From: Bacteroidetes bacterium UBA6183
GTDB lineage: Bacteria > Bacteroidota > Bacteroidia > UKL13-3
Assembly (NCBI GenBank): GCA_002422865.1
Contig: DITN01000094.1
Span: 12,661 to 76,660 of the forward strand
Reading direction: 5' to 3'
DNA: 64,000 bases
Positions 6,001 to 32,845 of the stretch are shown in pieces. The position numbers and the translations under genes are program-made. The number at the start of each line of letters is the position of its first letter. The first letter of the stretch is position 1. The notes under the pieces were generated by a model, which was not told the DNA's origin, searched no databases, and worked only from the letters and a program-made list of their open reading frames with translations.

Positions 6001-7510
6001 TTTAAAAATTTAGGAATCCCTGAGTTTGCGGTGGCTGCCAATATTCCGTCAAGGTATATTTTAATTGTAGTACCATCAAATTGAACGAGATAATGATTCC
6101 ATTGGTTTAACTTTAAACCAGGTGCATTAGTAAGAGCAAACCCTGTACTTAAATTACCAAAATATGTTTCGGCTTGTTGTCGGTTTGCAGTACCTTGAAA
6201 CAAGGTAGCAGTAACATTATCACTCGCACTGCCATTACCAAAATCAAATAACCTTGCCCAATTGGTAATACTATTTGGTTTTACCCAGCAACTCACTGTA
6301 AAAGGTCCGTTAAACCAAACTCCTGATGGAGCGGCTGCAAATGCACTTACCCCATTTAATTGCAAAGCACCAACTGGATTGCCAAATCTATCGGCACCAT
6401 AACTTGCACCACCACTAAGTGTGGCATGAAATCCATTGCCCGATGAGTCACCGGAATTTGTGTCAAATGGGTACCAAAGTAAACGATTTCGTTTTAAGGT
6501 TGTCCACCCATCACCCGGATTGTTTATGGTGTATGTTTGTATACTGGTATTGCCAACTAATTGCGGAAAACTTGAAACAATTCTTATTTTATAATAAGTA
6601 CCCGTTGATACAAAAGCGGGTATGGTTATTTGAATGGTATCGTTGGTAACACTTAACTTTGTTCCTAATGTGTAGGGTTGAGAAAAATTGCCATTTTCGT
6701 CACTTAATTGTGCTGTGTATATATTGCCGCTTTGTAATCCTGTTCCAAAAATCATTAAAGGCAATGCATAGCTTTTGCCTGCACATAACTCAGTAATGTT
6801 TAAATTAAGAGGAAGTAAGGTAATTGGTGAGGAGGCACTAAGTATTTCAATTTCTTGGGTATTTAACACTTGGCTGTATAACCTTAACTCATCAATAAAA
6901 CCTCTAAAAAATGAGTTATTTGATTGATTAACTACGTTACCTCCAATTCGGGTGTTGGTGGTATTTGTTCCAATAACATGGTTTCCGTTTATGGTGTTCA
7001 TTAATATACCATTCAGGTATATGCGCATTTGCGTTGAAGTGGTAGTTATAGCTAAGTGTTGCCAAGTACTGAGGGTGGAAGACAAACTAATGTTGGTGGT
7101 ACCCGAAGTTGGATGAAATATACTTAATCGATTAGGGTTGGTGTAAAAACCAATTTCAAATAAGTTATCCTGACCAAAAATGCTCATGCCATTTAACAAA
7201 CTTGTGATGTTAAACCACATACTTACGGTTAGTTGTGTTCTGCCACTTAATAAAGGAGAACCAAAATCTAATAGGCCTTGCTCGTGTTCTCCATTAAAGA
7301 ACATAGCATGGTTTTGTATTCCTTGTCTGTTTATGCCAGAGTAAACGCCATTTAGTGTGGAGGTAGCGTTATTATTTTGTCCACTTACATCGCTTGCATT
7401 TCCGTTTAGCGGCAAATAAGCAATAATACTGTCGTTAAGGTTTACCTGAGCATTTATAGGCTTAATACCAAGTAATACTAAAAGAACTGCGGTAATAATT
7501 TTAAGTTTCA
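1..7510 (-). CDS. Giant secreted adhesin-like protein, partial (N-terminal >2500 aa in window): signal peptide, LamG/concanavalin-like domain, ~5 tandem CUB-like ~245-aa repeat units, then Ig-like repeat units; probable T9SS substrate (C-terminus outside window)
   Basis: ATG at 7510 (minus strand) followed by signal peptide MKLKIITAVLLVLLGIKPINAQ. No minus-strand stop-bounded ORF is listed for 1-7510, consistent with an edge-touching ORF omitted from the track. By-eye translation shows LamG-like 'YLPLNGNASDVSG', recurring 'RDPGGTGNYGYGFWRQTF...VYDGPD...GF.A.LTC' CUB-like units, and downstream 'YQW..N...G...Y.A...G.Y' Ig-like units. Confidence 0.7.
1740..5400 (-). repeat. Intragenic tandem coding repeats, period ~736-744 bp (~245 aa), ~5 copies; the three central copies (~2461-3196, 3197-3940, 3941-4680) are near-identical
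   Basis: The string 'gt(g/a)tcactcatattaat...caagtaagtgttgcagtaaatccagttcgagttgaagcattggt' recurs at 2461, 3197 and 3941. The plus-strand ORFs 2494-2772, 3274-3507 and 3931-4242 are near-identical antisense shadows of the same repeats. Confidence 0.8.
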
Positions 7511-7527
7511 TAAAAAAGTTAGAAACT

Positions 7528-7535
7528 TCAAATAT
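7528..7535 (-). promoter_or_regulatory. Candidate Bacteroidetes -7 promoter element (TATATTTG, TAnnTTTG consensus) ~17 nt upstream of the adhesin ATG
   Basis: Minus-sense 'ttttaTATATTTGaagtttctaacttttttATG'. The motif matches the established Bacteroidetes sigmaA -7 consensus, but no -33 TTTG is evident. Confidence 0.25.
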
Positions 7536-7654
7536 AAAAGAAACATGAATTTTAGTAAGTACTTATTAATGCTATCATTAATTTTTTATGTTTGGAAATT
7601 AGTATTGGAGCATATTCTATAAACAATAAGTTTAAGACAATTTTATAGAAGCAG

Positions 7655-7726
7655 TAGTCTCGACAGGAATCGAACCTGTATCAAATGTTTAGGAAACATC
7701 TATTCTATCCATTGAACTACGAGACC
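7655..7726 (-). tRNA. tRNA-Arg (anticodon CCT), no encoded CCA
   Basis: Minus-sense GGTCTCGTAGTTCAATGGATAGAATAGATGTTTCCTAAACATTTGATACAGGTTCGATTCCTGTCGAGACTA folds as a cloverleaf. Acceptor is 7 bp with G1·U72, D stem GTTC/GAAT, anticodon stem GATGT/ACATT, loop TTCCTAA, T arm ACAGG-TTCGATT-CCTGT. Confidence 0.85.
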
Positions 7727-7728
7727 AT
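7700..7728. repeat. attL core: 29-bp direct repeat (tRNA-Arg positions 1-27 plus 2 nt upstream)
   Basis: Exact match to 32817-32845. The flanking sequences diverge immediately on both sides. Confidence 0.8.
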
Positions 7729-7792
7729 AAACCCTTGCTGGGCTTGGGTCAAATATAATAAAGTTTTATAAAAATGAGTCATTTTTCACCAT

Positions 7793-7817
7793 TTACTGCT
7801 CAATTCACTGCTCAAAA
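7793..7817. repeat. Left arm-type direct repeat TTACTGCTCAATTCACTGCTCAA, a tandem 'ACTGCTCAA' duplet, overlapping the 3' end of int
   Basis: 23/24 identity with 32704-32729. Both copies lie inside the island in the same orientation, 65 and 87 bp from the respective core repeats. Confidence 0.6.
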
Positions 7818-9299
7818 TTTTTCATAAAATTCCCTTGCTGCAAAACGACTTTCATGGTTATAATGTCTTGAATTTAAGTATATTTTGGTTGTCTTTTCTG
7901 AGGCATGGTTCAGTGTACCCTGTATTTGATGTGTAGTAAATCCTGCTTCTCTCATGTGTCTTGCTACTGTATGTCTTGGTGTATGTCCACTTAAATCTTC
8001 TATACCCAATGCTTCTCCAATCCGTTTTATTGCACCATTATGTTTGGCTCTGCACCGCTGAATTTGGTATTCATGTTTCTTATTAAAGTTTTTGTAATTG
8101 TACATCGTTCCTTTAAAGTCTTTTACTTTCAGGTAGGGGAAAATAAACCTTTCTTCTTCTTCACTTAAAATCTCAAAAAATCTGTTTACAACTGCACGCT
8201 GTAGTTTAACCCTTATCTCAGTTATTTTCTCAACTACAAGGTGTGAAAAGTCATCGGTTTTTTCTTTCAGTTGAATCTCCAAATCTATTAAGTCATCCAC
8301 TGTCCACTTTGTAATTGGTTTGTGATATCCTATTTGAACCATATTGGCAATCGTTTTTATCGGCAGCCTTAACTCTGATAAGGTTACACCGCCATTAACT
8401 TGTTTTACCAATTCTGGGTAATAATTCGTTAGCGCGTTAAGCATTTGATAATTTACATCAACTACTGTTGTGTCATCTATTTTTCTGGTAGGTATGAACA
8501 GACTACCGGACTTATACATCTTGTTTGTAAGTAATATTGCATCCTGAAATCGAATACCTGAGCAGTAGTATTGAAAGATAAATACACTTTGGGCCAATTT
8601 CTCTGATTCAGCACCCCGGTTTCCTTTTGGTTTGTAATCAATTAATTCCTGAATTTGAATAGGCTCGGGAACTTTTATCTTTTGTAGTTTTTCAACTCGA
8701 ATATCCGCGGTGAATGGTAGTGTATTGATTGGGTTTTGCGTTCCACTAATCGTGTTCCAACGTTTTACAATAGAGGCAAACAACGACATATACGATCTTA
8801 ATGCTTTATTCGATTTAACCTTACCTGTCTTTCTTGAAACCCTTATTTCTTCTCGTATTTTTTCAATTTCTGAAATATTTCTCAAAGCCTTGAAGGGTAT
8901 ATATTCCGTGCCGTAAAGTTTGATTGCTGCCTCCTTAAAATTGTTGAAGATGATTACGTATTTGTCTGCAGACCCCGTTGCAATGTTCTTATTTTTATGA
9001 TTACGTTTAATTTCCTCTTCAAATAATTTTAGTGCACATTGTTCGTCAGGTAATAATCCACCATGTTTTATTTCTTTTTCAAACGATTCAACTACATGGT
9101 CTATTATGTTGTTTATTGGCTCTGATTCTATGTAATTTTTCTTAACTCTCCCGTTTGTTTTCTCCCAGTATTTGAACGGCACTCTTATTTTGTAACTTTT
9201 CCGTTCTAGCACTTTAGCCCCCTCAAGTTTATAATGACAAAGTACACCTGTCTCCTTATCCTTTTTGTTACTGCGCAAATAAAATTTGATGTGTGCCAT
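7812..9299 (-). CDS. int: Tyrosine site-specific integrase (phage integrase family)
   Basis: 495 aa. The C-terminal catalytic region 'HTPRHTVARHM...HQIQGTLNHASEKTTKIYLN' carries the His-x-x-Arg, second His and nucleophile Tyr pattern. The gene abuts the tRNA and attL. Confidence 0.85.
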   Translation of the reverse strand: MAHIKFYLRSNKKDKETGVLCHYKLEGAKVLERKSYKIRVPFKYWEKTNGRVKKNYIESEPINNIIDHVVESFEKEIKHGGLLPDEQCALKLFEEEIKRNHKNKNIATGSADKYVIIFNNFKEAAIKLYGTEYIPFKALRNISEIEKIREEIRVSRKTGKVKSNKALRSYMSLFASIVKRWNTISGTQNPINTLPFTADIRVEKLQKIKVPEPIQIQELIDYKPKGNRGAESEKLAQSVFIFQYYCSGIRFQDAILLTNKMYKSGSLFIPTRKIDDTTVVDVNYQMLNALTNYYPELVKQVNGGVTLSELRLPIKTIANMVQIGYHKPITKWTVDDLIDLEIQLKEKTDDFSHLVVEKITEIRVKLQRAVVNRFFEILSEEEERFIFPYLKVKDFKGTMYNYKNFNKKHEYQIQRCRAKHNGAIKRIGEALGIEDLSGHTPRHTVARHMREAGFTTHQIQGTLNHASEKTTKIYLNSRHYNHESRFAAREFYEKF

Positions 9300-9301
9300 C
9301 G

Positions 9302-9607
9302 CTAATATACCTTTCTAAGTTTATGGTTTATTCTATTAACCAAAATACTTTCTAATCCTTGGTGTAGCGCTAAGATAAAGCGTTTTCGTCCATCTACAAT
9401 ATAATTTTCTGTATCAATTGTTATAGGTTGCGTGTTGGTGTAATCTATGTTTTCTGAAAACAAAAATTCCAGTTCACTGATTTGTAGTTCCTCTCCATCT
9501 TTTATTTTTATTTCCTCCAATCTAACGCACTCAGGTGTTTGTTCACTTTTAGTGTGTACTTTTAGTTCACTTGTGTGGTTTTGATATGTCTGTCTGAGAA
9601 GATTCAC
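9302..9607 (-). CDS. Small ParB N-terminal-like domain protein immediately upstream of int (possible recombination directionality/accessory factor)
   Basis: 101 aa. 'YIVDGRKRFILALHQGLE' resembles the ParB/Srx 'DGxHR..A' motif also present in the neighbouring MTase N-terminus. Its stop is 3 nt from the int start codon. Confidence 0.45.
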   Translation of the reverse strand: MNLLRQTYQNHTSELKVHTKSEQTPECVRLEEIKIKDGEELQISELEFLFSENIDYTNTQPITIDTENYIVDGRKRFILALHQGLESILVNRINHKLRKVY

Positions 9608-9743
9608 TGGATTATATTTTACCGCTATTTATATACTGGTTTTAAATTTTTAAAATTGTTACTGCACTTGATTTAGGGCAGGGTTTCCTGCATCGTTTTT
9701 TGTTGAATATTTAGGTTTCTTTCTTTTGATTGAAACTACTGCA

Positions 9744-9761
9744 GGGGGATATTTCACCCCC
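9744..9761 (-). terminator. GC hairpin (GGGGG-atatttca-CCCCC) downstream of the ParB-MTase gene
   Basis: Perfect 5-bp G/C stem. The U-run is weak. Confidence 0.35.
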
Positions 9762-9816
9762 TCACAGTTGAATTACTTGAATAGATTCTTACGACAAATA
9801 ATGTACTCCAGAATCA

Positions 9817-11340
9817 CTAGGCTGCAATGTTTAATTCAGTCTGGTTATTTTCCTCGTTAAGGAAATAATTAAACCTTTTTGAAGAAAATTCAATTGATGC
9901 AGGGTCTACATCATATCCAACAACGTTTCTTCCCATTGTTAAACCTATTCCAACTGTACCTGAGCCAACAAAGGCATCAAGTAAAGTATCACCCGGATTT
10001 GAATATGCTTTTATGAATTTTTCGTAGGTTTTAGTACATGCTGGTGCATCGTGTCTAAAATCGGGGTCTATCATTTTGAACTCATTTTTATTAAACGCTG
10101 GTGTTTTTATAACATTAGTAAGATGTTTTACATCATTACCCTTATAATATTTACGCTGTCCGTTTTTCTTTCTTTTTGACTTTTTTAATCCAATTACTTT
10201 GTCTGAATCATCATCTTCATCCTCAACCAAGTTAAATGTCATTTCACCCCCGGGTTTACTCACCACAATTGCCACCTCGTAAGCAGGTTGAAATCTGTTT
10301 TTAAGATCCTGTGGTACTGGGTTTTCCTTGGCTAAAATATTCATATCTACACCAATCCATCCGTCTTCAATCAACGCAGTCATTAACCTTGGACAAATAG
10401 CGTTGTAGCCACCTAAATATGATTCACCAATGATTATCACATTCATACCACCCGGTTTTAGTTTAGTTTTTATTCCACGGTTAAATTTAATCTGATTTTC
10501 TATGTATTCTGAAACAGTTTTTTCTTTACCGTGTTTCATATCATCCTGATTCGGATAATTCCTTTGATTGAAATAGGGTGGGCTTTGAATAGCCATGTCA
10601 ATTGATTCGTCTTCTAAGTCACTGAGGTCAAGTGATGACTTATTGAATAGTTTATACCTAGTTGTTTGAGTGTTGATTAAACCGCCCAAAACCCTCTGTT
10701 TAGCTTGTTCTTTAGAGTGACTTAATTTATACATCTCAAATACTTTGTAAGCACCATGCGGTGAAGTTTCCCCCTTGTCTAATTGATCTATTAAATCCAA
10801 TTTAACCTGTTCGGGTAGATAGGTTTCATCTTCAAAAATTGTCATTATTTTTCTAAGTGTTTTCGAACCGTAATCACAATCTACTTGTATTGTTGCCCAT
10901 TCCATTCTTTCTTTTTTAATACCCTCTGGAAATTCGACTTCATCCCATTCGGTTCTTTTTTTTCCGCGCTGTCTTCCTAACGGATAAAGTATGTGGTTTA
11001 GTTGATTGTAAATTTCAGACCATGTTCTTTTGGTGTTTGTGTTGTTGATAATATGGTCATCTACGATTTCAACGTTTTCGCTTAAATCAATAATCTCACA
11101 GTCCAGTTCGTTGAACTCTTCTGGGTTTTCCTTATTCAATTCCTTTGCAGCAATCAATCTTTTTACACCATCAACAATGAGATAGGCATCATCTCCATTG
11201 TTAACTACTTTGATGCAGTTACGCTGTCCTTTCGTTTTTAAACTGAACTTCATTTTGTTACATAAACGTGGTTCTGACACCTTTTTTACTCCTTGATGAA
11301 CTCCAAGTTGATCAAGAGTGATTCTTTTAATTTTTAACAT
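9817..11340 (-). CDS. ParB-like nuclease domain fused to an N6-adenine/N4-cytosine DNA methyltransferase (beta-class, orphan MTase)
   Basis: 507 aa. The N-terminal 'LIVDGVKRLIAAKEL' is a ParB motif. Motif IV is 'SPPY' (QSPPYFNQ) and the AdoMet motif I 'LLDAFVGSGTVGIG' lies C-terminal to it. Confidence 0.75.
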   Translation of the reverse strand: MLKIKRITLDQLGVHQGVKKVSEPRLCNKMKFSLKTKGQRNCIKVVNNGDDAYLIVDGVKRLIAAKELNKENPEEFNELDCEIIDLSENVEIVDDHIINNTNTKRTWSEIYNQLNHILYPLGRQRGKKRTEWDEVEFPEGIKKERMEWATIQVDCDYGSKTLRKIMTIFEDETYLPEQVKLDLIDQLDKGETSPHGAYKVFEMYKLSHSKEQAKQRVLGGLINTQTTRYKLFNKSSLDLSDLEDESIDMAIQSPPYFNQRNYPNQDDMKHGKEKTVSEYIENQIKFNRGIKTKLKPGGMNVIIIGESYLGGYNAICPRLMTALIEDGWIGVDMNILAKENPVPQDLKNRFQPAYEVAIVVSKPGGEMTFNLVEDEDDDSDKVIGLKKSKRKKNGQRKYYKGNDVKHLTNVIKTPAFNKNEFKMIDPDFRHDAPACTKTYEKFIKAYSNPGDTLLDAFVGSGTVGIGLTMGRNVVGYDVDPASIEFSSKRFNYFLNEENNQTELNIAA

Positions 11341-14941: not shown

Positions 14942-17900
14942 TTATTCTTCTGCTGCTATCGAATATGAATCTTCGTTGGTTTCGTAAAGTTTACTACTAA
15001 AGTCGTTTGCTAGTAGTTTTGCTTGTTCTATTACTGTTTCTGTGGCCTTAGTTTCTAAATCTGGTGGGTAACCATGTTTGCGTAAAATCCTTTTTACCGC
15101 AATTCTCATTTTGGCTTGAATCGTTTCTCTCACAGTCCAATCAATGTTGGTATTTCTTTTTACTGTATCAACCAACTCACGTGCAATGTGTCGTAAAATT
15201 TCATCACCCAACACTGCAACAGACGAATCATTTACTTCAAGTGCAGTATAAAAAGCATACTCCCTAAAATCCAATCCCATGTCTTCACCTCGTCTGTCGG
15301 CCTCCTTAATATCCTTGGCCAATCGAATCATTTCTTCGATAATTTGAGCGGAAGTAATTAGGTTGTTTTGGTATGATTTCATTGATTTCTCCAACATCTC
15401 AGAGAACTTTTTTGATTGAACTAAGTTTACCTTTTGTCTGGTTTTGATTTCATCGTTTAGAAGTTTTTTTAGTAACTCCAAAGCCAGATTTCTATGGGTC
15501 ATTCCTTTCACCTCAGCTAAAAATTCATCAGAGAGAATGGAAATATCCGGTTTTTTAATTCCGGCAGCATCAAAAATATCAATCACCTCATCGGCAACAA
15601 CAGCATCAGACAAAATCTGTTTGATGGCTGTTTCTATTTCTTCATCTGTTTTTCCTTTACCACTTTGGGTTACTTTTACAATACGTGTTTTGATTGCTTG
15701 AAACAATCCAACAGTCTCTCTTATATCAGTAGTATAAGGGTGAGGTACAGAAATAGCAAAAGCCTTTGTTAATGCTGTTACAGCAGTAACGAATCTATTT
15801 TTACCGTTTTCTAATCCTAAAATATAGTTGGCTCCTTGTATTGGGAAGTATAATTTCTCTTTGGGTGTTTTACCAAAAAACGATTTGTAATCAAATCCTT
15901 TTGGTGCTGTATTATCAAGTGGTTGTTCGTTAAACATATTACACACCACTTCAAATTTACCCATCATTACTTCGGCAGCTTCATCTTGGTCGATAGTTGG
16001 TTTTCCTTTACCACCACTTTCGGTATATAATGATAACGCCTTCTTTAAATCGTTTGCTATACCAATGTAATCTACCACCAAACCACCATCCTTATCTTTA
16101 TAAACCCTATTAACCCTTGCAATGGCTTGCATCAGGTTATGACCTTTCATCGGTTTATCAATGTAAAGTGTGTGCATGGATGGTGCATCAAACCCAGTTA
16201 ACCACATATCTCTTACTATGGCAAGTTTTAATGGGTCTTTAGGGTCTTTTAATCGTTCACCTAGTGCTTTACGTTTAGCCTTGTTTCTAACGTGAGATTG
16301 AAAGTTTAATGGGTCGGATGATGAACCTGTCATTACCACTTTTACTGTACCTTCATTATCATCATTGCTGTGCCACTCCGGTTTTATCTTTATGATTTCA
16401 TTGTAGAGGTCAACACATATTCTACGACTCATGCACACAATCATTGCTTTACCATCCAACACAGCATTACGTGATTCAAAGTGTTGAACAATATCTTTTG
16501 CAATTAATTTAAGTCTGTGTTCATTACCTACAATGGCTTCCAACCTTGCCCATTTAGATTTTAAACTTTGTCTTGAATTTAATTCTTCACCCTCGGTTAA
16601 TTCTTCAAACTCTTCATCAACTCTTGGTTTTTCATCTTCCAATAAGTCAATTTTTGCTAGTCTGTTTTCATAAAATATCCTAACCGTTGCACCATCTTCT
16701 ACCGCTTGCTGTATGTCGTACACATCAATGTAATCACCAAAAACGGCTTGGGTATTCTTATCCGTATTTTCAATGGGTGTTCCGGTAAAACCTATAAAGG
16801 AAGCATTGGGTAAAGCATCCCTCATGTGTTTGGCAAAACCATCCATAAAGTCATACTGACTGCGGTGTGCTTCATCTGCAATAACAACTATGTTTCTTCT
16901 TTCTGATAATAGTTCAAATTGTCCTTTTATGTTTTTAAACTTACCATCTCCAATCTCAATTTTCTCTTGTATTTCGGGTAAGAATTTTTGGATGGTAGTA
17001 AATACAATACCACCCGAACTTACACTAAGTTTCTTTTTAAGGTCGTCTCTGTTTTCTGCTTGTACAGGTGTTTGTCTGAGTATATCCTGACTTAAAGAGA
17101 ACGTATCAAATAACTGGTCATCTAAGTCGTTTCTATCAGTTAAAACAATAAGTGTTGGGTTGTTTAATGCTAGTACCAATTTACCTGCATAAAACACCAT
17201 ACTTAAACTTTTACCACTACCCTGTGTGTGCCAAATTACACCGGCTCTTTGGTCACCATTTTCTGCTGTTGCTCGTTTGGTGGTTTCTACTGCTTTGTTT
17301 ACCGCAAAGTACTGATGGTAACGAGGTACAATTTTGGTTATCTGTTCTTTGTTTAGATGAAATAGAATGTAATGTCTAATTAGGTCGGGTAATACCCTTT
17401 TATTGAGCATACCCTTAACCATTACCTCCATTTGTGGTATGTCTTCATCTGCAACAAATTTTCCATCAATTGATTTCCACGGAACAAAAAATTGTTTAGG
17501 TGCTGTTAAAGAACCATACAGTGCATCCCAACCATCAGACACAATTAATAGTGAGTTATAGGTAAACAGAGATGAAATGGTTTGTTTATAGGTTTGTAGT
17601 TGGTTAAACGCTGAGTTAATGGTTGCGTTTTCATCAACAGCGTTTTTAAGTTCAATTACAACCAACGGAAGTCCATTAACAAACAAAATTAAATCGGGGC
17701 GTTTATTAATGTTGTTTTCAATAATTGTAAATTGATTTACTACCAAAAACTCGTTGTTATCAGGGTTGGAAAAGTCTATTAACCATACCTTGTCACCAAC
17801 AATTCTACCACCTTTTCGGTATTCAATATCTACACCCTCGGTAAGGTATTTGTGGAAGGTGTAATTGTTTTGAAATAAGTTGGGACTATCTGTACGTAAA

Positions 17901-18157
17901 ACCTTCTTCAGCGCTTCTTCCTGTGCTTCTCCGGGGACGGTTGGATTCAGTCTGGAAATGGTATCTCTCAATCTTTGTTTAAGAACCACCTCATCAAACT
18001 CACGTTCTTGTGCAACACCATCTGGTGAAATATCTGCACCGTTAACGTATGAGTATCCAAGGTCTATAAACTCTTGGATAATGATTTGTTCTATATTGTT
18101 TTCAGATAGTATGGCGGCCATGGTTATGGGTTTATATTTCTGATACCTCCAACTCAC
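14942..18157 (-). CDS. hsdR: Type I restriction enzyme R subunit (HsdR); the likely true start is the internal Met at ~18121
   Basis: 1071 aa. Helicase motifs 'HTQGSGKS' (Walker A) and '[10 protein letters not shown]' (DEAH). Confidence 0.9.
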
Positions 18158-19358
18158 CGGAAATGAGTTTTGGTAAAAGGGTGTCTCGGAGTTGTGTTAG
18201 TTGCTGGTTTTGGTTTGTGAAATTATAGATTAACGAGTCTTTCTCTTTTACCAACTCATCAAAACCGTTTGAGGTGGAAAAAGGAGGTATGATTGTTTTA
18301 ATGTTGCCTAAAGTTTCTTTATTTATTGAACCGAAGACAGTACCTTCGTTATCATAAGATTTCAATTCTCCCTGAATAGATAGCATTTTGTAATAAGTGT
18401 ATGAAAACAACTTTCTTGGATGTGAAATTGAACCAAGGCCCCGGCCAATACAACAATCATGTTCAGCCATATTAATATCCCCAACGGGAGCTCTTACACT
18501 AATTAACGTCTCGAACTTCTTAGCAACCTTTTTTGGGTCATTTGTATACATTCGTACTGAAGGATACCTAAAACCAAAGTCCGAACGTCCCTGAAAGAAT
18601 ATCATTCCATCTCCTGTTTCATTGTATGTGTCTCCTTTTGGAGATTGACCCATATTAAGGTTGAATTCATCTTTTAAAGTTCCAACTACCCAATCCTTTG
18701 GAATCTCACCCAACTCACTATCCTTCATTTCACCACCGGAAGATTTGTAGGGTTCACCATTTTCATTAGGAAACTCAAAATCAATAAACCAACGTTTAAA
18801 TAAGGTTTGTGCAAGGTTTTCTAACTCCTGATTGATTTTGTTGTTGAGTTCTATTTTATCATCAAGTGAGGAGAGGATTTCAGCAATGGCGGTTTGGGTT
18901 GGGAGGTCGGGGAGATTGAATTTTAAATTCTTTACAACCGATGCAGATATTTCAGCAAAAGTTGTTCCTGTACCATAGGACTTGATGTACTCCATTTTTG
19001 CTTTTAGCAAATAGTAAACAAAGTTATAATCAGCTTTTTCTGGATTAACTACAATACTTTTAAAACCCTGGTTAGTGCATACTTCATTAGCAGCAATAGC
19101 CAAATATCCTATAGGTGCTCTGGATGTTAATAGGATAGTATTCTTCGGAACCATCCTTGAAGAAGAATTTGATAAACCTTCTATTGTTATGTTTCTCTCA
19201 CCATTTGCAATGTGCCTATTTGTGTAATTGGTCAAGTCTTTTGGTGTTAGCCAAGGAATGTTACCACCGTAAAAATGTGGCACTTTTGTTGAAGGTGTAC
19301 CACCACCAACAACATCAGCAATTTCTTCTATTTTATATTCTTTCCAAATAGCCATCAT
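18132..19358 (-). CDS. hsdS: Type I R-M specificity subunit (HsdS), two target-recognition domains
   Basis: 408 aa. Conserved central '[16 protein letters not shown]' and C-terminal '[14 protein letters not shown]' repeat regions. Confidence 0.85.
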
Positions 19359-19831
19359 GCTTCAGTTTCGTAGTTTAAATAATAATCAACATTAAAATAT
19401 CCGTTCTCAAGTTCAACCACACCGCCTAATGCATATTTATATTGATTATCTTCAGTTTGACTTATAAAGTCTATTATTTTTTTATGGTCATTCTCTCTAT
19501 TTGCTTTATTCCAATAGCCTTTAAATTCAAGCACTAAAATATTTTCTTCATTAGAATTTCTTCTGTGTAACAAAACATCTGGAATAACACCACCGGAAAA
19601 GTTTTTTGTATTCTTAGGCTTACCCAAATTGCGATTGTACTCACAATCTAAATTGTAGCCGCTGAAAGAACTTTTTGATAACAACTCCGCGAAATAAAGC
19701 CCGAAACGAAAAACTACACTTCTTTCATTTACGGCAAACTCTATTAATTCCTGGTCTTGTTGATAAAGGCTTTGTAATGCTTCATCAACTATACCTTTCA
19801 GCTCTTTTATATGTGCAGTTGATAGTTTCAC
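19355..19831 (-). CDS. Hypothetical protein with PD-(D/E)xK (Mrr-cat/restriction-endonuclease-like) motif, embedded in the type I R-M operon
   Basis: 158 aa. 'GGVIPDVLLHRR...(19 aa)...ILVLEFKGYW', preceded by a helix carrying Glu ('AVNERSVVFRFG'). Its stop overlaps the hsdS start (ATGA). Confidence 0.5.
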   Translation of the reverse strand: MKLSTAHIKELKGIVDEALQSLYQQDQELIEFAVNERSVVFRFGLYFAELLSKSSFSGYNLDCEYNRNLGKPKNTKNFSGGVIPDVLLHRRNSNEENILVLEFKGYWNKANRENDHKKIIDFISQTEDNQYKYALGGVVELENGYFNVDYYLNYETEA

Positions 19832-19841
19832 TTATTTGCTC

Positions 19842-21080
19842 TTATTCTTCGTTTAATTCTACAAAAGACACTAGAATGTCTTCAATCTTTGGTTTTTTAT
19901 TACCGGCTTGTTTTGTTTCTCTACGTTCAATAACCACATCATAAGTTTTATCAAAATGAATAAGGTATGACATTTCTAGACGTGCTTTATCCATTTTGCC
20001 TTTTGATGTGTTGTCTTTATCTTCAATATCTTCAAACTCGTAATAACCTGTCTTAACGTTTAAGGCAATAAAGCGACCTGTAATTTTGATGTCTGTTTTT
20101 TCATCATACTCCAATTTTTCAAGCACACTTAAAATCTCATTGGCCTTGTCAAAATTTAAGTCTTTACGGTCAGACACTTTAGTGACAGCGTTTTCGTACC
20201 GAATGTAAAATTTGAGTTTTGATCCAATAATGGTTTGTAGCAAACCTTTGTAACTAGTAATTATCTTTTTATCAATAGACTTGACAAATTCTGCAAGTTG
20301 CTCATATTTTTCAGAGGCACTGATAAAGTTCATCACAAATTGGATAAACATGTCTTCATCTGACGGTACGCCTTCCATTGGAACAGCTGCCGATGCTGGC
20401 TTAAATAATGCACTAAAAGAGCCTCCTGCTTGTGCAAAATAGTTTATCTGTGTACTATGTTTTAGTGCGGCCCTGTCAATATTTGGTTTATTATTCTTGT
20501 CCTTTGGTGCTGTTCTTATTCTTTGCTTAATAAATGCTTTGCCTAAGCCTGATGTAATCTCGTGTAAGCTATTCATTGCAGGGCCGAAAATGTCAATATC
20601 TATTTCATTATACGGAACTTTGGAAGAGTTTTTGAAATAGGTTTGAAGTATGCCTGTATTGTACTTCAAAGAATAATTTGTTAAATCTAAATCATCTGAA
20701 AGAGGGTCAAAAGTGTATTTAGTGTTTCTGTCCGGCAAATAAGATTGAGGTATTTGATCTGGAAATATCATTAAAATATTTTGATAATTCAGGTCAACAT
20801 CAATATCAACTTTATAAACAAAGTTGTCGTTTGGCTCTGTTATGATGTTATAGAATGTCAGCTTTCCGTTCAAATATGCTTGAAGCCTTTCTATCGAAAC
20901 CCTTACTACCAACCAACGATTGAATGTATCATCTACATCTGCCCAAAAAAACAAATAATTTTCGTTGTTGCCCGATCGAAAATGTGACAACAAAGGACCA
21001 TCATAATAAATGAGGTCGCTTACTTTTTGCAAGTCCTTTATGGGAAGCCTTTCCAGTAATATGCCGTTAATTGCTTCCAT
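19842..21080 (-). CDS. Hypothetical protein (412 aa) embedded in the type I R-M operon; no recognisable motifs
   Basis: Long ORF. Its start overlaps the stop of the upstream ORF (21080) and there is a 10-nt gap to the downstream ORF. Confidence 0.55.
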   Translation of the reverse strand: MEAINGILLERLPIKDLQKVSDLIYYDGPLLSHFRSGNNENYLFFWADVDDTFNRWLVVRVSIERLQAYLNGKLTFYNIITEPNDNFVYKVDIDVDLNYQNILMIFPDQIPQSYLPDRNTKYTFDPLSDDLDLTNYSLKYNTGILQTYFKNSSKVPYNEIDIDIFGPAMNSLHEITSGLGKAFIKQRIRTAPKDKNNKPNIDRAALKHSTQINYFAQAGGSFSALFKPASAAVPMEGVPSDEDMFIQFVMNFISASEKYEQLAEFVKSIDKKIITSYKGLLQTIIGSKLKFYIRYENAVTKVSDRKDLNFDKANEILSVLEKLEYDEKTDIKITGRFIALNVKTGYYEFEDIEDKDNTSKGKMDKARLEMSYLIHFDKTYDVVIERRETKQAGNKKPKIEDILVSFVELNEE

Positions 21081-21520
21081 CAGATTAATTTTTCAATTGG
21101 TATGAATTTGTTGGATAGGTTACAACTTTCAAATTCAAACAAGTCAAAGTGAGTGTGTTTGCCTTCTTCTGTAATCAAACCATCATTGCCATCAATTAAG
21201 CCTGTACTTAGTGTTTCACCAACCGCTTTGTAAAATTTAGGGATGTGTTTACTGTGTTCTAAAAAAAATTGTTTTGCACTATCTGGTCTTTTAAAGCAAG
21301 AAAGGCCATACAATGAACATTTTTTTTGATCCTTCTCATTTAATACTCTTTGAGGATTATTTGCACCAGGGGGCTTGTGGTTTTTTATATGATAAGGATC
21401 TTCAAACACAAAACGAAATGTTTGCAGATTATTAGGCACTATTAATTCATCAGGAGGGCAGCAGATACCCATCTGTTGAATTTTTTCAATTTCTCGTTTA
21501 TATTTTAATTTTTCGGTCAT
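21080..21520 (-). CDS. Hypothetical protein (146 aa) embedded in the type I R-M operon
   Basis: Its start overlaps the hsdM stop (ATGA at 21517-21520). It contains an A8 run in the coding sequence (21313-21320). Confidence 0.5.
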
Positions 21521-23025
21521 ATCTCAATCCCCACTTTTTTAAGGTTCTCTTTAATACGTTTCTGTAATTCTACTGATTCAGTAAAATGTAATTTCAGGTT
21601 GGTTGTTATCCCTTGTATTTTTTCCTCAAAGGAAACTCCATCGTCTTCTACATCTTCAGTACCTACATAACGTCCGGGTGTTAAAACAAAATTATTATCT
21701 TCAATATCCTTTAGTGTGGCCGATTTACAAAAACCTTGTATGTCTTCATATCCTCCATCTTTACTTCTCCACTTGTGGTATACTTCAGCAATTTTGCTTA
21801 TGTCATCATCGGTAAAGGCTTTGTTTTTTCTACTCACCAATGTACCAAATTTACGTGCATCAATAAATAGTATTTCGTTCTTACGTTTACGGTATTTACC
21901 ATTGGTTTTATTACGTGCCAAAAACCATAAACAAGCAGGTATTTGGGTATTAAAAAACAACTGTGTAGGTAGTGCAACCATACAATCAACCACACCATCC
22001 AAAATCATGTTTTTCCTAATCTCATTTTCTCCACCAGAGTTTGAGGTCATAGAACCATTGGCCAACACAATACCTGCAACACCACTAGGACTAAGTTTAT
22101 TTAAAACCAATTGTAACCAAGCATAGTTGGCGTTTCCGGCAGGTGGTACACCATATTTCCATAAGTGTGAATCCTGTAATGACTCGGCACCATAATCAGA
22201 AATATTGAAAGGGGGATTCATGATGGCGTAATCCACCTGAATGTCTTTGTGTCTATCGTTGTGTAAGGTATCGCCTAATTCAATTTTGGCATCAATACCC
22301 CTGATGGCTAGGTTCATTTTGGCTAGCTTGTAGGTGGTTGGGTTACTCTCTTGTCCATATACCGCTATATCCCCAATTTTACCTCCGTGAGCTTCCAAAA
22401 ATTTCTCACTTTGAACGAACATACCTCCAGACCCACAGCAGCCGTCATAGATACGGCCATTGTATGGTTCTAACATTTCAACTAGGAGTTTAACAATACT
22501 GTCTGGAGTATAAAATTGTCCGCCACGTTTACCTTCAGCATCAGCAAACATTCCTAAGAAATACTCGTACACTCTTCCCAACAGGTCTTTACTATTCTGA
22601 CCGGGTTCATTGAAACCAATGTTTCCAATTAGGTCAATTAACTCACCCAAACGTTTTTTATCAAGTGCCGGTCGAGCATAATCTTTTGGTAAAACACCTT
22701 TCAAATTGGGATTGTCCTTTTCAATGGCATCCATTGCATCGTCAATATCTTTACCAATGGTAGGGAGTTTGGCTCTTTCGTATTGAAGGTATTCCCAACG
22801 TGCAATGGTGGGTACGAAGAACACATTCTCTGCTAGGTATTCGTCCTTATCTTCCGGGTTTGATAGTGGGTCACTACTTAACTTGGTATGTAGTTCTTTA
22901 AAACTATCTGATATGTATTTCAAGAAAATCAATCCAAGTACTATGTGTTTGTACTCGGCAGCATCCATGTTATTACGTAATTTATCTGCTGTAGCCCAAA
23001 GGGTCTTTTCTAAATCTTTTACCAT
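21517..23025 (-). CDS. hsdM: Type I R-M N6-adenine DNA methyltransferase subunit (HsdM)
   Basis: 502 aa. Motif I '[11 protein letters not shown]' and motif IV 'NPPFN'. Confidence 0.9.
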
Positions 23026-27526: not shown

Positions 27527-28585
27527 TTATTGGAGCAATATTTTCCTTATGTCAACAATATTACCACTGTTGTCTATTAGTTGGAGGAAATATATACCAT
27601 TACCACCCCAAGCAGTAATGTCAATGTTAAACTGCTGTTGGTTGATGTTACTTTGAAATACTTGTTGTCCCAAAGAGTTCATGATCTTAATTGAGTAACC
27701 AGTCATCTTTGATAGATTACCATTGTCAATTGTGATCTTGTCTTTCGTTGGGTTTGGATAAACTTTCAATGTGTTTTCAAATGTAATTGGGTTGTATCCT
27801 GTTCTATTCACATTTATAACCAAGGTGTCAGTTACACTGATTCTATCGACACATAAATTAGCGTTATAAAGTCCTTTTATTTCTGATTCTGTTAATGCAC
27901 GGTTCCAGATTCCGATGTCATCAACTAAACCATTTAAAAATCTGTTCGGAGTTCCCAAACCATTGTCACACCCAAAATATAATGGATTGGTACTATTACA
28001 AACTGTTGAACTAATATTATTTGAGTCTTTTAACACCCCATTTACAAATAATTTAGCACCATTTGAGCTTCTTACTATTGTAAAATGTATCCACTTAAGT
28101 GAATCAATATTACCTCCAATTAAAGAGTTTTGAGGATACATTTGAAAATCACGAGTTACAACAACTAATTCCTTAGAAGAACTGATAAAAACGGCATAAT
28201 CGTCACTGCTATTGTTACAGTTTTTATTCCCATACCATTTAGTTACAACTCCACTTAATAAATTTTGATTATTTGGAAATCTGTTTACATACAACCATCC
28301 TGAAATAGAAAACTCTGTTGGGCTTGATATATTTGGGCTGTTTGATATCGTAATGTATTTGTTTTGACCTGTTTCAACAGAGGTGTTATTTCCAAATCTA
28401 TCAGTCGATAAAACTGAACCATTTAATATCCCATTATTACCATTACCACTAATGTCATTTGCGTTACCATTGAATGGCCACCATCCAACTAATCCATTTG
28501 TTGGTACGTATGATGGAACATTTTGAGAGAAAACAGTGTTGGAGAAAATTGTAATTCCAATTAGTATTGTTATAAAGTATTTCAT
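27527..28585 (-). CDS. Secreted LamG/concanavalin-like lectin-domain protein with T9SS C-terminal sorting domain
   Basis: 352 aa. Signal peptide, 'YVPTNGLVGWWPFNGNANDISGNGNNG' (LamG), and a C-terminal 'KVYPNPTKDKITIDNG...GIYFLQLID...KILLQ' (Por_Secre_tail hallmark YPNP). Confidence 0.8.
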   Translation of the reverse strand: MKYFITILIGITIFSNTVFSQNVPSYVPTNGLVGWWPFNGNANDISGNGNNGILNGSVLSTDRFGNNTSVETGQNKYITISNSPNISSPTEFSISGWLYVNRFPNNQNLLSGVVTKWYGNKNCNNSSDDYAVFISSSKELVVVTRDFQMYPQNSLIGGNIDSLKWIHFTIVRSSNGAKLFVNGVLKDSNNISSTVCNSTNPLYFGCDNGLGTPNRFLNGLVDDIGIWNRALTESEIKGLYNANLCVDRISVTDTLVINVNRTGYNPITFENTLKVYPNPTKDKITIDNGNLSKMTGYSIKIMNSLGQQVFQSNINQQQFNIDITAWGGNGIYFLQLIDNSGNIVDIRKILLQ

Positions 28586-28611
28586 ATCGATGAGTTATTA
28601 TTATTTGACTG

Positions 28612-29649
28612 TTACTGAAGAAGGATTTTTCTAAATTCAACAGTGTTTCCAGTTTTATCCATCAGATGTAAATAGTAAATACCATTACCACCCCAAGCAG
28701 TTATGTCAATATCGAATTGTTGTTGATTGATATTACCTTGAAATACCTGTTGTCCCAATGAGTTCATAATCTTAATTGAATAACCAGTCATCTTTGATAG
28801 ATTACCATTGTCAATTGTAATTTTATCTTTGGTTGGGTTTGGATAAACTTTCAACGTGTTTTCAAATGTAATTGGGTTGTATCCTGTTCGATTTACATTT
28901 ATGATAAGTGTATCAGTTACCGCAATAGATTGAAAACAAAGACTTGCGTTATAAAGTCTTTTTATTTCTGATTCTGTTAATGCACGGTTCCAGATTCCGA
29001 TGTCATCTAACTTTGAGTTAATATGATCAAACATGTTTGTTCCCGCATATCTTGCACCAAAGGTTAGATTTGCTGTATTGTTGATGTTATGGATAACCGA
29101 GGTAGTATCGGTAAAATGTAGATTACCATTGATATAAATTTTAATGATATTTCCTGTTCGAGACAGTACATAACTTTTCCAATTATTTAAAAGATTTGAA
29201 CTTGATCGATAACTATAGTAATCTGACATCAAGTTTTGATTTAGTTCTAAGGATGGTGCATTTCCCCAAGACATTGAGAAAAAGTTTCCATATCCTATAT
29301 CTTTTCTTTTGGAAATCAATGTTCCGCCATTTATAGAGTCTACGTCTTTAACCCAACAAGAAATAGTAAAGTTACTATTTTGAAAATTCCCAACTGTATT
29401 GTTAATGTATATAAAGTTATTTGTTCCATTAAAACTATATGCCGTTGCTGAATTATCAAATCTATCACCAGTCAATGTGGCCCCAATCACCGTACCATTA
29501 TTCCCATTACCACTTTCATCATTAGCATTACCATTAAATGGCCACCAACCCACCAGTCCATTTGTTGGAACGTAGGTAGGAAGATTTTGTGCTTGCGAGT
29601 AGTTTAACCAACCAAACACAAGGATTAATTTTATAATAAATTTGTTCAT
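28612..29649 (-). CDS. Secreted LamG-like protein with T9SS C-terminal domain, paralogue of 27527-28585
   Basis: 345 aa. Same N-terminal LamG motif. The 3' ~330 nt (28660-28990) is ~90-95% identical in nucleotide sequence to 27575-27905. Confidence 0.8.
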   Translation of the reverse strand: MNKFIIKLILVFGWLNYSQAQNLPTYVPTNGLVGWWPFNGNANDESGNGNNGTVIGATLTGDRFDNSATAYSFNGTNNFIYINNTVGNFQNSNFTISCWVKDVDSINGGTLISKRKDIGYGNFFSMSWGNAPSLELNQNLMSDYYSYRSSSNLLNNWKSYVLSRTGNIIKIYINGNLHFTDTTSVIHNINNTANLTFGARYAGTNMFDHINSKLDDIGIWNRALTESEIKRLYNASLCFQSIAVTDTLIINVNRTGYNPITFENTLKVYPNPTKDKITIDNGNLSKMTGYSIKIMNSLGQQVFQGNINQQQFDIDITAWGGNGIYYLHLMDKTGNTVEFRKILLQ

Positions 29650-31013: not shown

Positions 31014-31418
31014 ATGAAAATGTTAGAGTTTGAATCAATCTCGGATAGATTAAAGAAAATTCGAATTGAAAAGAATGTAAGTCAAGATTTTCTGGCCAAG
31101 AAAATTGGCATAACACAGAAGGCATATTCAAAAATTGAAAACAATGAGACTAAACTCAATGTTGAGGTACTCCAAAAAATATCAGATATATTAGAAGTTC
31201 CTGTTGAATCATTTTTTAAAGGTTCAAGTTCACCTGTTTTAAATGACTTCAGTAACCGTTCAGGCGGAGACAATGTGGTGTATAAGAATGGATCTGTTGA
31301 AAAGGTAGAGGAGTTGTATGAGAAAATTCTCAAAGCAAAGGATCAGGTGATACAATCCAAAACTGATGAAGTGGAAACCTTAAAGTTGGTAATTAAAAAG
31401 ATAAAAGAGGTAAAGTAA
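31014..31418 (+). CDS. XRE-family (Cro/CI-type) HTH transcriptional regulator
   Basis: 134 aa with 'VSQDFLAKKIGITQKAYSKIENNETKLNVEVLQKISDILEV'. Confidence 0.8.
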   Translation: MKMLEFESISDRLKKIRIEKNVSQDFLAKKIGITQKAYSKIENNETKLNVEVLQKISDILEVPVESFFKGSSSPVLNDFSNRSGGDNVVYKNGSVEKVEELYEKILKAKDQVIQSKTDEVETLKLVIKKIKEVK

Positions 31419-31465: not shown

Positions 31466-32623
31466 TTATACTGCTGCGGATATTGGGAAGTAGTTTCCGG
31501 GTAACTGAAGTGTGAATTTTATTGGTGGTTTAATTTTATCGGGTACTGCACCATAATCAGGTATCAATTCCAATAACCTGTCTTTTATCGTTTCGGGATA
31601 TAAGTCTTGAATTATTATTTCTCTAGGCCTACAAGCCGAGAGTATTTTTCTATCAATTTCTGCGTTGAAAAATGGGAATGAATAACCAACAATAATTAGT
31701 CTTTCGGTATTTTTAATTACATCAAGGATGTTTGTAATCATATTATCAAATCCCGGATATTTTTCATCTTTTTCCCAAGCAAAATTGAAGTATTTGAATA
31801 CATCTGCTCCAGTTAATTTACCTTCAGGGAATAACTCTTCAAATTCAACAAGGTAATCTCCAATTTTAGCACTATCACTCCTTTGTGTATTAGGATTAAT
31901 ATTAATATCATGTGGTGTAACACCATTAGACCCTTCATTCTGAAAAACCCTATCCATAAAAGCATTTCCGTTTAATTTGAACATCGAAAACCTATTTGGA
32001 TCTATTATCTTGTTTTTAGCCTCGTTTAAACTTTTTTGATTTGGATGAATTTGATACTTGTTTTTAATAACATTAATCTTTTCGTTCGTGTAGTTTTGGA
32101 TGGTATGTTCAACCTGTAAGTCATAGTTCCATGTTATTATTTTAATATCATCACGGAGTTTAATCCCATTAACATCGTTTTCGGCAATAGAGGCGATTAG
32201 GTTGTCATATCTTTTATCTATTAAGAGTTGATATTTTGTATTTTTACCTTCAAATCCAACACACTGTTCGAAGAAAAAGTAGGAAACCAATCCTCTTTTA
32301 AGCCTTTTTAAACTTTCATGGTCACCCTTTAAAGAAAACTTTCGTGCCAATGTATCAACTGTTTGATGAATTTCAGATTCAGTATATAAGAACTCTAAAT
32401 CGTCTTTAATAACTCTCAGAGTGTTCTGGTGTTCTCTTATCCTACTATCTAATTTTTGGAGTAATGGAGAATATACGTCAGTGGTAATATAGCTTTCAAT
32501 AAATTGAGATAAATCTTTTATACGGTCTCTCAAACCATCAATAGTAGGAATTGCTTGGATACTTGCACCTGCACCGAGGTAATAAACAGTGTTTTTCATG
32601 TTGGTTATACAATTTTTGTACAA
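31466..32623 (-). CDS. Stand-alone SIR2_2-like (defence-type SIR2) domain protein; the conserved catalytic His appears to be replaced by Asn
   Basis: 385 aa. Ordered motifs 'YYLGAGAS' (GAGxS), 'IITWNYD' (TTNYD), 'FKLNGNAF' (aligning with KxHGx) and 'LIIVGYSFPFFNAEID' (GYSxxD) match the ThsA/SIR2_2 pattern. Alignment was done by eye. Confidence 0.5.
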   Translation of the reverse strand: MYKNCITNMKNTVYYLGAGASIQAIPTIDGLRDRIKDLSQFIESYITTDVYSPLLQKLDSRIREHQNTLRVIKDDLEFLYTESEIHQTVDTLARKFSLKGDHESLKRLKRGLVSYFFFEQCVGFEGKNTKYQLLIDKRYDNLIASIAENDVNGIKLRDDIKIITWNYDLQVEHTIQNYTNEKINVIKNKYQIHPNQKSLNEAKNKIIDPNRFSMFKLNGNAFMDRVFQNEGSNGVTPHDININPNTQRSDSAKIGDYLVEFEELFPEGKLTGADVFKYFNFAWEKDEKYPGFDNMITNILDVIKNTERLIIVGYSFPFFNAEIDRKILSACRPREIIIQDLYPETIKDRLLELIPDYGAVPDKIKPPIKFTLQLPGNYFPISAAV

Positions 32624-32703
32624 TTTATTGGGATAACCCTTACGAAAACAAACAAGATTTGCACACGACTATGTTGTGTTGGGCTTGGATATTGATATTA
32701 CAG

Positions 32704-32729
32704 TTACTGCTCAAATCACTGCTCAATTT
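32704..32729. repeat. Right arm-type direct repeat TTACTGCTCAAATCACTGCTCAA
   Basis: See left copy. It lies between the SIR2-like gene start and attR. Confidence 0.6.
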
Positions 32730-32816
32730 GTGTTTTTTAACACGACTTTTTCCTTGAAGATTATTGATGGTACTGGGTTTCGGGGGATTGGTAGTGGTTG
32801 GTTCTTAAAAGTGAAC

Positions 32817-32845
32817 TATTCTATCCATTGAACTACGAGACCATT
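32817..32845. repeat. attR core: 29-bp direct repeat, a partial copy of the tRNA-Arg 5' end
   Basis: Exact match to 7700-7728. No remainder of the tRNA follows it. Confidence 0.8.

Follow-up and report, generated by a model that had tools for sequence, protein, structure and literature searches.

How might a SIR2-like protein work when asparagine stands where its fold is expected to carry a catalytic histidine, and when no partner gene accompanies it? To our knowledge, all characterised defence SIR2 effectors (ThsA, DSR1/2, SIR2-HerA, SIR2-APAZ and KomC) use an Asn-His pair together with a partner or a sensor domain. The question is raised by a gene of Bacteroidetes bacterium UBA6183, which lies in a stretch of 64,000 nucleotides of contig DITN01000094.1 (positions 12,661 to 76,660 of the forward strand) that was analysed as a whole and is called the window here. 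Our best reading, to which we give a probability of about 0.45 and which draws on sequence comparison, a structural model and analogy, is that the gene product is a stand-alone, mobile effector that processes nicotinamide adenine dinucleotide (NAD+) with a retooled active site and probably serves in defence. The chemistry of this reading is proposed because SirTM shows that an amide can replace the histidine in an active NAD-cleaving sirtuin. Two features are at the centre of the argument:

31466..32599, minus strand: the SIR2-like gene, 377 amino acids from the likely ATG at M9
31970..31972, minus strand: the codon of N218, the asparagine that very probably occupies the SIR2 catalytic His position (ThsA H152), computed from the start of the open reading frame at 32623

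The longest open reading frame (ORF) of the SIR2-like gene runs over 31466..32623 on the minus strand and encodes 385 amino acids from a TTG start at 32623. Because close homologs, among them a 377-residue protein of 98% identity (P0001), start at M9 (MKNTVYYLGAGAS), the gene likely extends over 31466..32599. The four motifs by which the initial annotation had likened the product to defence-type SIR2 domains (GAGxS, TxNYD, the KxHGx position and GYSF) are all present and in that order, as YYLGAGAS (residues 14-21), IITWNYD (162-168), FKLNGN (215-220) and IIVGYSFPFFNAEID (310-324). The Rossmann core carries GAGAS at 17-21, TWNYD at 164-168, KLNGN at 216-220 and GYSFPFFN at 313-320, and two insertions accompany it, a helical cap at about residues 28-146 and a second excursion at about residues 220-290. 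The protein is a single domain without a fused second domain.

Does this protein adopt a SIR2 fold, the prediction on which the initial annotation had staked its assignment? The AlphaFold2 model, built from a 54-sequence alignment, reaches a predicted local distance difference test score (pLDDT) of 90.5 and a predicted template modelling score of 0.91. Its top Foldseek matches in the PDB are to the SIR2 subunit of E. coli SIR2-HerA (8sub, 8suw and 8uae; E 4e-6 for 8sub, ranging to 3e-5, probability 1.00), and next come ThsA (8btp, 6lhx) and then the classical sirtuins CobB, Sir2A, Sir2Af2 and SIRT2. The PADLOC 'SIR2' model PDLC04084 further matches residues 6-177 (E 3.3e-7). A SIR2 fold, comprising a Rossmann large subdomain and a helical small subdomain, is thus supported by the model, and the proposed SIR2 relationship is borne out by the model, the Foldseek and PADLOC matches and the trimmed profile alignment described below. 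The NAD-binding framework of defence SIR2s is intact, with the GAGxS phosphate loop, the asparagine of TxNYD (N166) and the GYS...N motif after the next core strand all in place, and an acidic residue is kept at the end of the strand that follows GYS...N. Single-sequence and full-length profile searches against PDB sequences returned noise only (T4 lysozyme, designed helical proteins).

Which residue, then, sits at the catalytic position? A His-bearing reference set (ThsA 6LHX, ThsA 8wc0, 7uxt and KomC 8zsf) was aligned together, the ThsA sequence being an exact match to PDB 6LHX, and the cores were compared profile to profile after both insertions had been trimmed on both sides, with ranges chosen by eye. 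In this trimmed hhalign comparison the family and the His-bearing SIR2s share 120 collinear columns (probability 86.8%, E 4.2e-6): GAGAS pairs with GAGLS, TWNYD with TTNYD (N166 with ThsA N112), GYSFPFFN with GFSFTDPN and FKLNGN with YKMHGD, which sets N218 on ThsA H152, K216 on K150 and G219 on G153. The same pairing of N218 with the histidine comes, at low confidence, from an extended alignment in which the family profile was left untrimmed. The full-length hhalign comparison with ThsA and KomC fails because the two large insertions break it, anchoring only TWNYD on TTNYD with a probability of 2%; of the motifs, only TWNYD, GAGxS and GYSF are anchored when hhalign and HMMER are run untrimmed, and a core-only HMMER profile run against the PDB ranks KomC first, weakly (E about 0.09), with the His region not resolved. 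In the model, N218 follows the strand at 213-216 and directly precedes the second excursion into the small domain, and it is at this place, in an x-H-G motif behind the third core strand, that sirtuins carry their catalytic histidine. Sequence and model together make N218 very probably the His-equivalent position, in agreement with the initial annotation. The hidden Markov model (HMM) comparison with Pfam PF13289 (SIR2_2), to which that annotation had looked for the residue mapping, gives 14.1 bits for the window protein (E 0.052), below the gathering threshold of 24.5 bits, and the mapping comes instead from the ThsA and KomC profiles.

Could the catalytic histidine lie elsewhere in the protein, an outcome that would undo the claimed substitution? 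The alignments offered only H193 (QIHPN), placed on the His motif by one low-confidence path; it is histidine in just 67 of 236 family proteins (28%), with Phe, Ile, Tyr or Leu in the others, and so cannot be the catalytic residue of the family. Another candidate, H86 in the cap, is the best conserved histidine at 83%, but it is Tyr, Phe or Ser in other members and was likewise rejected. No histidine is invariant anywhere in the 236-protein alignment.

The asparagine, by comparison, is universal there. The initial annotation had described a His-to-Asn change; the asparagine at the His position stands, and it is no lesion of a single gene, for N218 is an invariant trait of the family. In the HMM alignment, all 236 proteins share N218, G219, W165, N166, Y167, D168 and Q170, while D90, A93, K109, Q120, R138, W283, E284, G313, Y314, S315, F316, P317, N320 and D324 are 97-100% conserved, and Y14, G17, A18, G19, S21 and D140 are conserved in 93-96%, the remainder being mostly gaps in fragments. 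The glycines and other residues of the phosphate loop (G17, A18, G19, S21) reach at least 95% there and do not vary at all among the 54 aligned sequences, and G313, S315 and N320 reach 97%. Besides the invariant residues, about 30 positions are at least 90% conserved, at an overall identity of roughly 30-45%. Among 104 copies drawn from 102 genome and viral loci, the equivalent of N218 is Asn in 102, the others being one split pseudogene and one Arg, and His in none. Judged by these sequences, the conservation is that of a selected, functional active site under purifying selection and not of decay or a dead relic, and the invariant asparagine together with the many conserved residues points to a change of chemistry and not to a loss of function. 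NAD is probably handled by a different chemistry in this family.

This is a large, mostly Bacteroidota family, previously unnamed. A search of 5.8 billion proteins returned 734 homologs at E<=1e-3, about 330-425 residues long, all labelled 'hypothetical', none with a precomputed Pfam domain and none bearing a fusion; with a 54-member profile, the number of representative clusters at 50% identity is 2,933 for E<=1e-3 and falls to 1,678 for E<=1e-30. Identity to the window protein across the aligned family set is 29-77%. Relatives confirmed by a pattern scan number 417 among 185,579 species genomes and are patchily distributed, and the hosts of the loci that were fetched are mostly Chitinophagaceae, Flavobacteriaceae, Sphingobacteriia and Cytophagia, as isolates and metagenome-assembled genomes, with a few Ignavibacteria, Spirochaetia and Campylobacterales. 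Sub-threshold SIR2_2 matches occur in 17 of the 54 profile members (best E 1.6e-4), 6 of the 54 match the related TPP_enzyme_M fold, and NCBIfam and PHROGs gave no relevant match for the SIR2-like protein. Literature searches yielded no description of an Asn-bearing SIR2-like family, an absence that is no proof of novelty. A phage origin of the family is unlikely, given that it has no PHROG match, no structural match in BFVD and only 14 loci in 2.9 million viral contigs.

How far does the family stand from the known systems? Its best structural and best HMM match is SIR2-HerA (PADLOC GAO_19), whose SIR2 protein of about 400 residues is similar in length and shares the Rossmann core with a helical cap, GAGxS and TxNxD; however, the two have only about 15% sequence identity and a template modelling score (TM-score) of about 0.4, the SIR2-HerA subunit has a catalytic histidine (SaSir2 H287, essential) where the family has its invariant asparagine, and SIR2-HerA requires HerA for activation whereas the family has no conserved neighbour gene in the 81 loci clustered. 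The SIR2 domain of ThsA from Thoeris (6lhx, 8btp) is the second-best structural match and is collinear with the family in its core motifs (GAGxS, TTNYD/TWNYD, K-x-[H/N]-G and G[FY]SF...N), but ThsA has His152, a C-terminal SLOG sensor and a ThsB partner, whereas the family has asparagine, no SLOG and no ThsB except for one neighbour described below. KomC (8zsf), the SIR2 NADase of Kongming, is like the family a small SIR2-only protein and is the best PDB sequence match of the core profile (E about 0.09), yet it has catalytic His146 and acts in a filament with KomB under the control of dITP, and no such partner accompanies the family. DSR1 and DSR2 resemble the family in being single-gene SIR2 defence proteins; they are about 1,000 residues long, with a large C-terminal sensor domain and a catalytic histidine (DSR2 H171), in contrast to about 380 residues and no sensor domain here. 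By sequence and model, then, the family keeps the fold and three of the four signature motifs of defence SIR2s and departs from them in the catalytic histidine and in every defining partner or domain, lacking HerA, SLOG/ThsB, the DSR sensor domain, KomB and APAZ/Ago.

How could such a site work? The histidine of sirtuins is a general base, and that of SIR2 NADases reaches the nicotinamide ribose with its side chain (PMC7272460, PMC11514289, PMC13454610). Among characterised sirtuin classes, SirTM alone lacks the catalytic histidine; an absolutely conserved Gln137 replaces it and contacts the ribose 3'-OH, and the enzyme is robust and specific as an ADP-ribosyltransferase while being devoid of deacylase activity (PMC4518038). 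The family would likewise present an amide, Asn in place of Gln, while retaining the asparagine of TxNxD, N166, which in SirTM is N118 and is essential. In the mechanism that we propose, NAD+ would be bound in the cleft between the Rossmann core and the family-specific helical cap, and N166 would aid the departure of nicotinamide. N218, unable to act as a base, would hydrogen-bond the nicotinamide-ribose hydroxyls like SirTM Gln137, and the ADP-ribosyl group would then be passed either to water, resulting in NAD+ depletion, or to an acceptor, resulting in ADP-ribosylation. The missing catalytic function may be supplied by invariant polar residues, namely D90, K109, Q120, R138 and D140 of the cap and W283-E284 of the second insertion. 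Since no sensor partner is encoded, control would have to be intrinsic and provided by the cap domain or by self-assembly. In the cell, the protein would serve on its own as an accessory effector of phage defence or abortive infection, carried by mobile elements and often inserted next to restriction-modification (RM) genes. It is possible, though to our minds doubtful, that this amounts to a new single-gene immune or conflict system with switched SIR2 chemistry, which, having asparagine for the general-base histidine and new invariant acidic residues in its cap, does not simply hydrolyse NAD+ but ADP-ribosylates a phage or host macromolecule or makes another NAD-derived product.

Two other views of the active site must be considered. 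The protein could be a strictly SirTM-like ADP-ribosyltransferase, its amide orienting the ribose, that transfers the group to a defined phage or host protein or nucleic acid without bulk NAD+ depletion. The His-less SirTM, itself a robust and specific transferase (PMC4518038), makes the analogy attractive, and the large conserved cap with its invariant D90, K109, Q120, R138 and D140 looks less like a simple lid than like a surface that binds a substrate. Nonetheless, we regard this as unlikely. The family is structurally nearest to the defence NADases SIR2-HerA and ThsA and not to class M sirtuins, with no fold-level closeness of the model to SirTM in the Foldseek search of the PDB. Asparagine is one methylene shorter than glutamine, and the geometry may differ accordingly. 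SirTM also belongs to another sirtuin branch, has an Arg192 partner and resides in a lipoylation-linked operon with a macrodomain and GcvH-L/LplA2; this operon is absent from the family loci, and no macrodomain eraser or GcvH-L-like target gene adjoins the family gene in the 83 loci compared.

Less likely again is a non-catalytic SIR2-fold binder of NAD+, ADP-ribose (ADPR) or a related nucleotide, serving as a sensor, sponge or regulator. Replacing the histidine by alanine abolishes the activity of ThsA (H152A; PMC7272460) and inactivates KomC (H146A; PMC13454610), and mutation of H287 does the same to SaSir2 (PMC11514289); moreover, binding motifs can persist for ligand binding alone. An engineered KomC(H146N) structure exists as PDB 9xvc, carrying the same His-to-Asn change that is natural in the family. 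Against a mere binder speak N166 and D168, both invariant, and a large number of further invariant polar residues, which together exceed the usual demands of ligand binding, and there is neither an output domain nor a conserved partner through which a sensor could act.

What do the surroundings of the gene say about its role? Neighbourhoods were sampled from 80 genome loci and 8 contig contexts, in which ORFs were called and four genes on each side were clustered. Every neighbour cluster is confined to 8 or fewer of the 81 loci clustered, and no conserved partner gene emerges across the 83 related loci. HerA is not adjacent in the window and is absent both from the top 25 Pfam/PADLOC families of 127 immediate neighbours and from 29 individually annotated ones. 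The initial annotation's remark that no HerA, SLOG or Macro partner is fused or adjacent thus holds in the window and extends to the related loci, in which none was found; no macrodomain or GcvH-type gene was seen among the neighbours in the 83 loci either. An RM enzyme lies directly upstream and co-directional in 8 of the 76 loci with an upstream neighbour, at gaps of 3-46 bp:

L002, L003, L009 and L028, same strand: type I HsdR or HsdS directly upstream of the family gene
L030, same strand: type ISP enzyme directly upstream of the family gene
L041 and L065, same strand: MmeI/Eco57I-like type IIG enzyme directly upstream of the family gene
L083, same strand: ResIII directly upstream of the family gene

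A further 127 immediate neighbours span 122 different Pfam families. When an iterative search is extended to 8 kb, 11 of the 83 loci have such an RM system, 13 a tyrosine integrase and 21 either one. The largest neighbour cluster is a lineage-restricted arrangement in six Flavobacteriaceae genomes (L033, L034, L038, L052, L058 and L085, at about 6300-10300 in each), in which an aldo-keto reductase (in four of the six), a short-chain dehydrogenase, the family gene and a Schlafen/AlbA_2-DUF5929 gene follow one another on the same strand with gaps of 0-37 bp; it is vertical synteny or else an operon peculiar to that lineage. Elsewhere, the neighbours include SMODS-SLATT (L005), MADS and PDC-S01 components, alanine dehydrogenase/PNT and a DHODH-like enzyme. 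One locus (L007) has two family paralogs, at 3644-4714 and 6001-7149, 1.3 kb apart, which flank a RES toxin and Xre-MbcA-ParS antitoxin pair; RES-domain toxins are NAD+-targeting enzymes. In a Chitinophagaceae chromosome (L023, OY970398.1, 5594-9158), a ThsB-like TIR gene (PADLOC E 1e-60) stands divergent from a family member at a distance of 312 bp and adjoins a serine recombinase, with no canonical ThsA among the nearest neighbours. This may be a one-off Thoeris-like pairing, and a Thoeris link of the family at large was discarded on finding a ThsB-like neighbour in just 1 of about 100 loci searched.

In the window itself, the gene is mobile cargo of an island that is integrated at a tRNA-Arg gene. 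The features that define this island, apart from the SIR2-like gene, are the following:

7654-7726, minus strand: tRNA-Arg(CCT), overlapping the left attachment (att) site
7700..7728, no strand: left att site, a 29-mer in perfect direct repeat that overlaps the 5' part of tRNA-Arg(CCT)
7812..9299, minus strand: tyrosine integrase, 495 amino acids, also syntenic in L001
14163-14789, plus strand: second, short tyrosine-recombinase-like gene, 208 amino acids, just beyond the end of hsdR
14942..23025, minus strand: type I RM operon (hsdR, hsdS, hsdM), defence cargo of the island
19355-19831, minus strand: PD-Lambda-3_A-like gene, 158 amino acids (PADLOC E 1e-20)
19842-21080, minus strand: PD-T4-10_B-like gene, 412 amino acids (PADLOC E 3e-33; also Pfam DUF6575)
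21080-21520, minus strand: PD-T4-10_A-like gene, 146 amino acids (PADLOC E 2e-28)
31014..31418, plus strand: XRE/HTH_3 regulator gene, 134 amino acids, convergent with the SIR2-like gene
32816..32844, no strand: right att site, an identical 29-mer corresponding to the 5' part of tRNA-Arg, the island edge

The perfect 29-nucleotide direct repeat, CTATTCTATCCATTGAACTACGAGACCAT, bounds an integrative island of 25.1 kb. As the initial annotation had it, the SIR2-like gene is at the island edge, being the last cargo gene before the right att site, which lies 216 bp upstream of its start codon, and it is convergent with the XRE gene, the two stop codons being 47 bp apart. The XRE gene is kept beside a homolog only in a closely related element (L001) and so is not a component of the system. 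That element, a 25.9-kb contig (ERR4869811_20216) carrying a homolog of 70% identity (P0004), joins its integrase end and its SIR2-like end at 4900-6010 with one copy of that 29-mer between them; the left flank matches the attL side of the window and the right flank the attR side. On sequence grounds, this junction is probably the attP of an excised circle or of a circular assembly of a sister element. Since the 29-mer corresponds to the 5' part of tRNA-Arg, the element in the window appears to sit in the 5' half of that gene, whereas integration at the 3' end is more usual. A tandem motif, TTGAGCAGTGA(A/T)TTGAGCAGTAA, recurs inside the island near both att sites (about 32700-32735 and about 7760-7800, in minus-strand reading) and on both sides of attP in L001 (about 4910-4940 and about 5210-5240); its copies may be candidate arm-type binding sites of the integrase or an excisionase.

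Elsewhere on the island, the three PADLOC-matched genes form a second defence system nested within the type I RM locus. Inverted hsdS repeats that would betray a phase-variable shufflon were also sought close to the second integrase-like gene, and none were found. Further cargo consists of an N6/N4 methyltransferase, an umuD-like S24 peptidase, a UmuC-type polymerase, an SRAP gene and an outer membrane beta-barrel protein. Two tandem paralogous LamG (Laminin_G_3) genes with C-terminal sorting domains of the type IX secretion system occupy 27527-29649 on the minus strand and have no obvious link to defence; they share DNA segments that are 82-93% identical at a spacing of 1,064-1,085 nucleotides. 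To the right of the island are an ABC-2 exporter and ORFs of glycosyltransferase size. To its left, positions 1 to about 7560 of the window looked gene-free and hold, on the minus strand, one ORF of at least 2,520 amino acids that runs off the window edge, with a signal-peptide-like start followed by LamG-like sequence and internal repeats.

Might the family instead do housekeeping or ancillary metabolic work in Bacteroidota, as an NAD-linked regulator for instance, with no part in phage defence and with its placement on an island and beside RM genes being incidental? Most loci do have housekeeping neighbours, and the conserved arrangement in the six Flavobacteriaceae genomes, together with the alanine dehydrogenase/PNT and DHODH-like neighbours elsewhere, would suit such a role. 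We consider it improbable, however, in view of the patchy distribution (417 relatives in 185,579 species genomes), carriage on an excisable island, the two paralogs around a RES-Xre toxin-antitoxin pair, the recurrence as the last gene of RM operons of four different types, and the defence SIR2s being the nearest relatives by both fold and HMM. The weakest proposal makes the protein an accessory or guard of RM systems, kept silent by RM proteins and released once a phage has knocked out restriction, much like the anticodon nuclease PrrC in its type I RM locus. It would explain the 8 of 76 co-directional upstream RM genes at close gaps, but is very improbable because only 11 of 83 loci have such an RM system within 8 kb, about 8.4 kb with other genes separates the SIR2-like gene of the window from the type I RM operon, and the RM types concerned (type I, type ISP, type IIG and ResIII) are unrelated, which argues against a specific protein-protein dependence.

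Our preferred reading, a stand-alone NAD+-processing effector, has its own difficulties. First, mutation of the histidine kills ThsA, SaSir2 and KomC, and its replacement by asparagine may therefore mean no hydrolysis at all; the roles given to E284, D90 and D140 in making up for it are purely inferred. Second, the assignment of N218 to the His position relies on an alignment trimmed by eye and on fold topology, not on three-dimensional superposition, and the Foldseek TM-scores are only about 0.4, modest because of the two large family-specific insertions. Third, about 75% of the loci lack both an RM system and an integrase within 8 kb, and housekeeping genes (aconitase, tRNA synthetases and LptD, for example) make up many of the neighbours; the defence association of the family is suggestive, not strong.

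Finally, what would the answer mean? The family keeps everything except the histidine, has no partner, travels on mobile islands and behind restriction enzymes, and comprises about 2,900 clusters at 50% identity. Unassigned in Pfam, NCBIfam and PHROG, and matched by PADLOC only in part, it is missed by defence censuses of Bacteroidota. If inactive, these proteins would constitute a widespread NAD- or ADPR-binding pseudo-sirtuin. If active, they would show that the sirtuin fold can catalyse in a second way and that an effector can be minimal and self-contained, with its trigger inside about 380 residues; and should the switched chemistry prove true, they would be the second His-less sirtuin class after SirTM and the first in defence.

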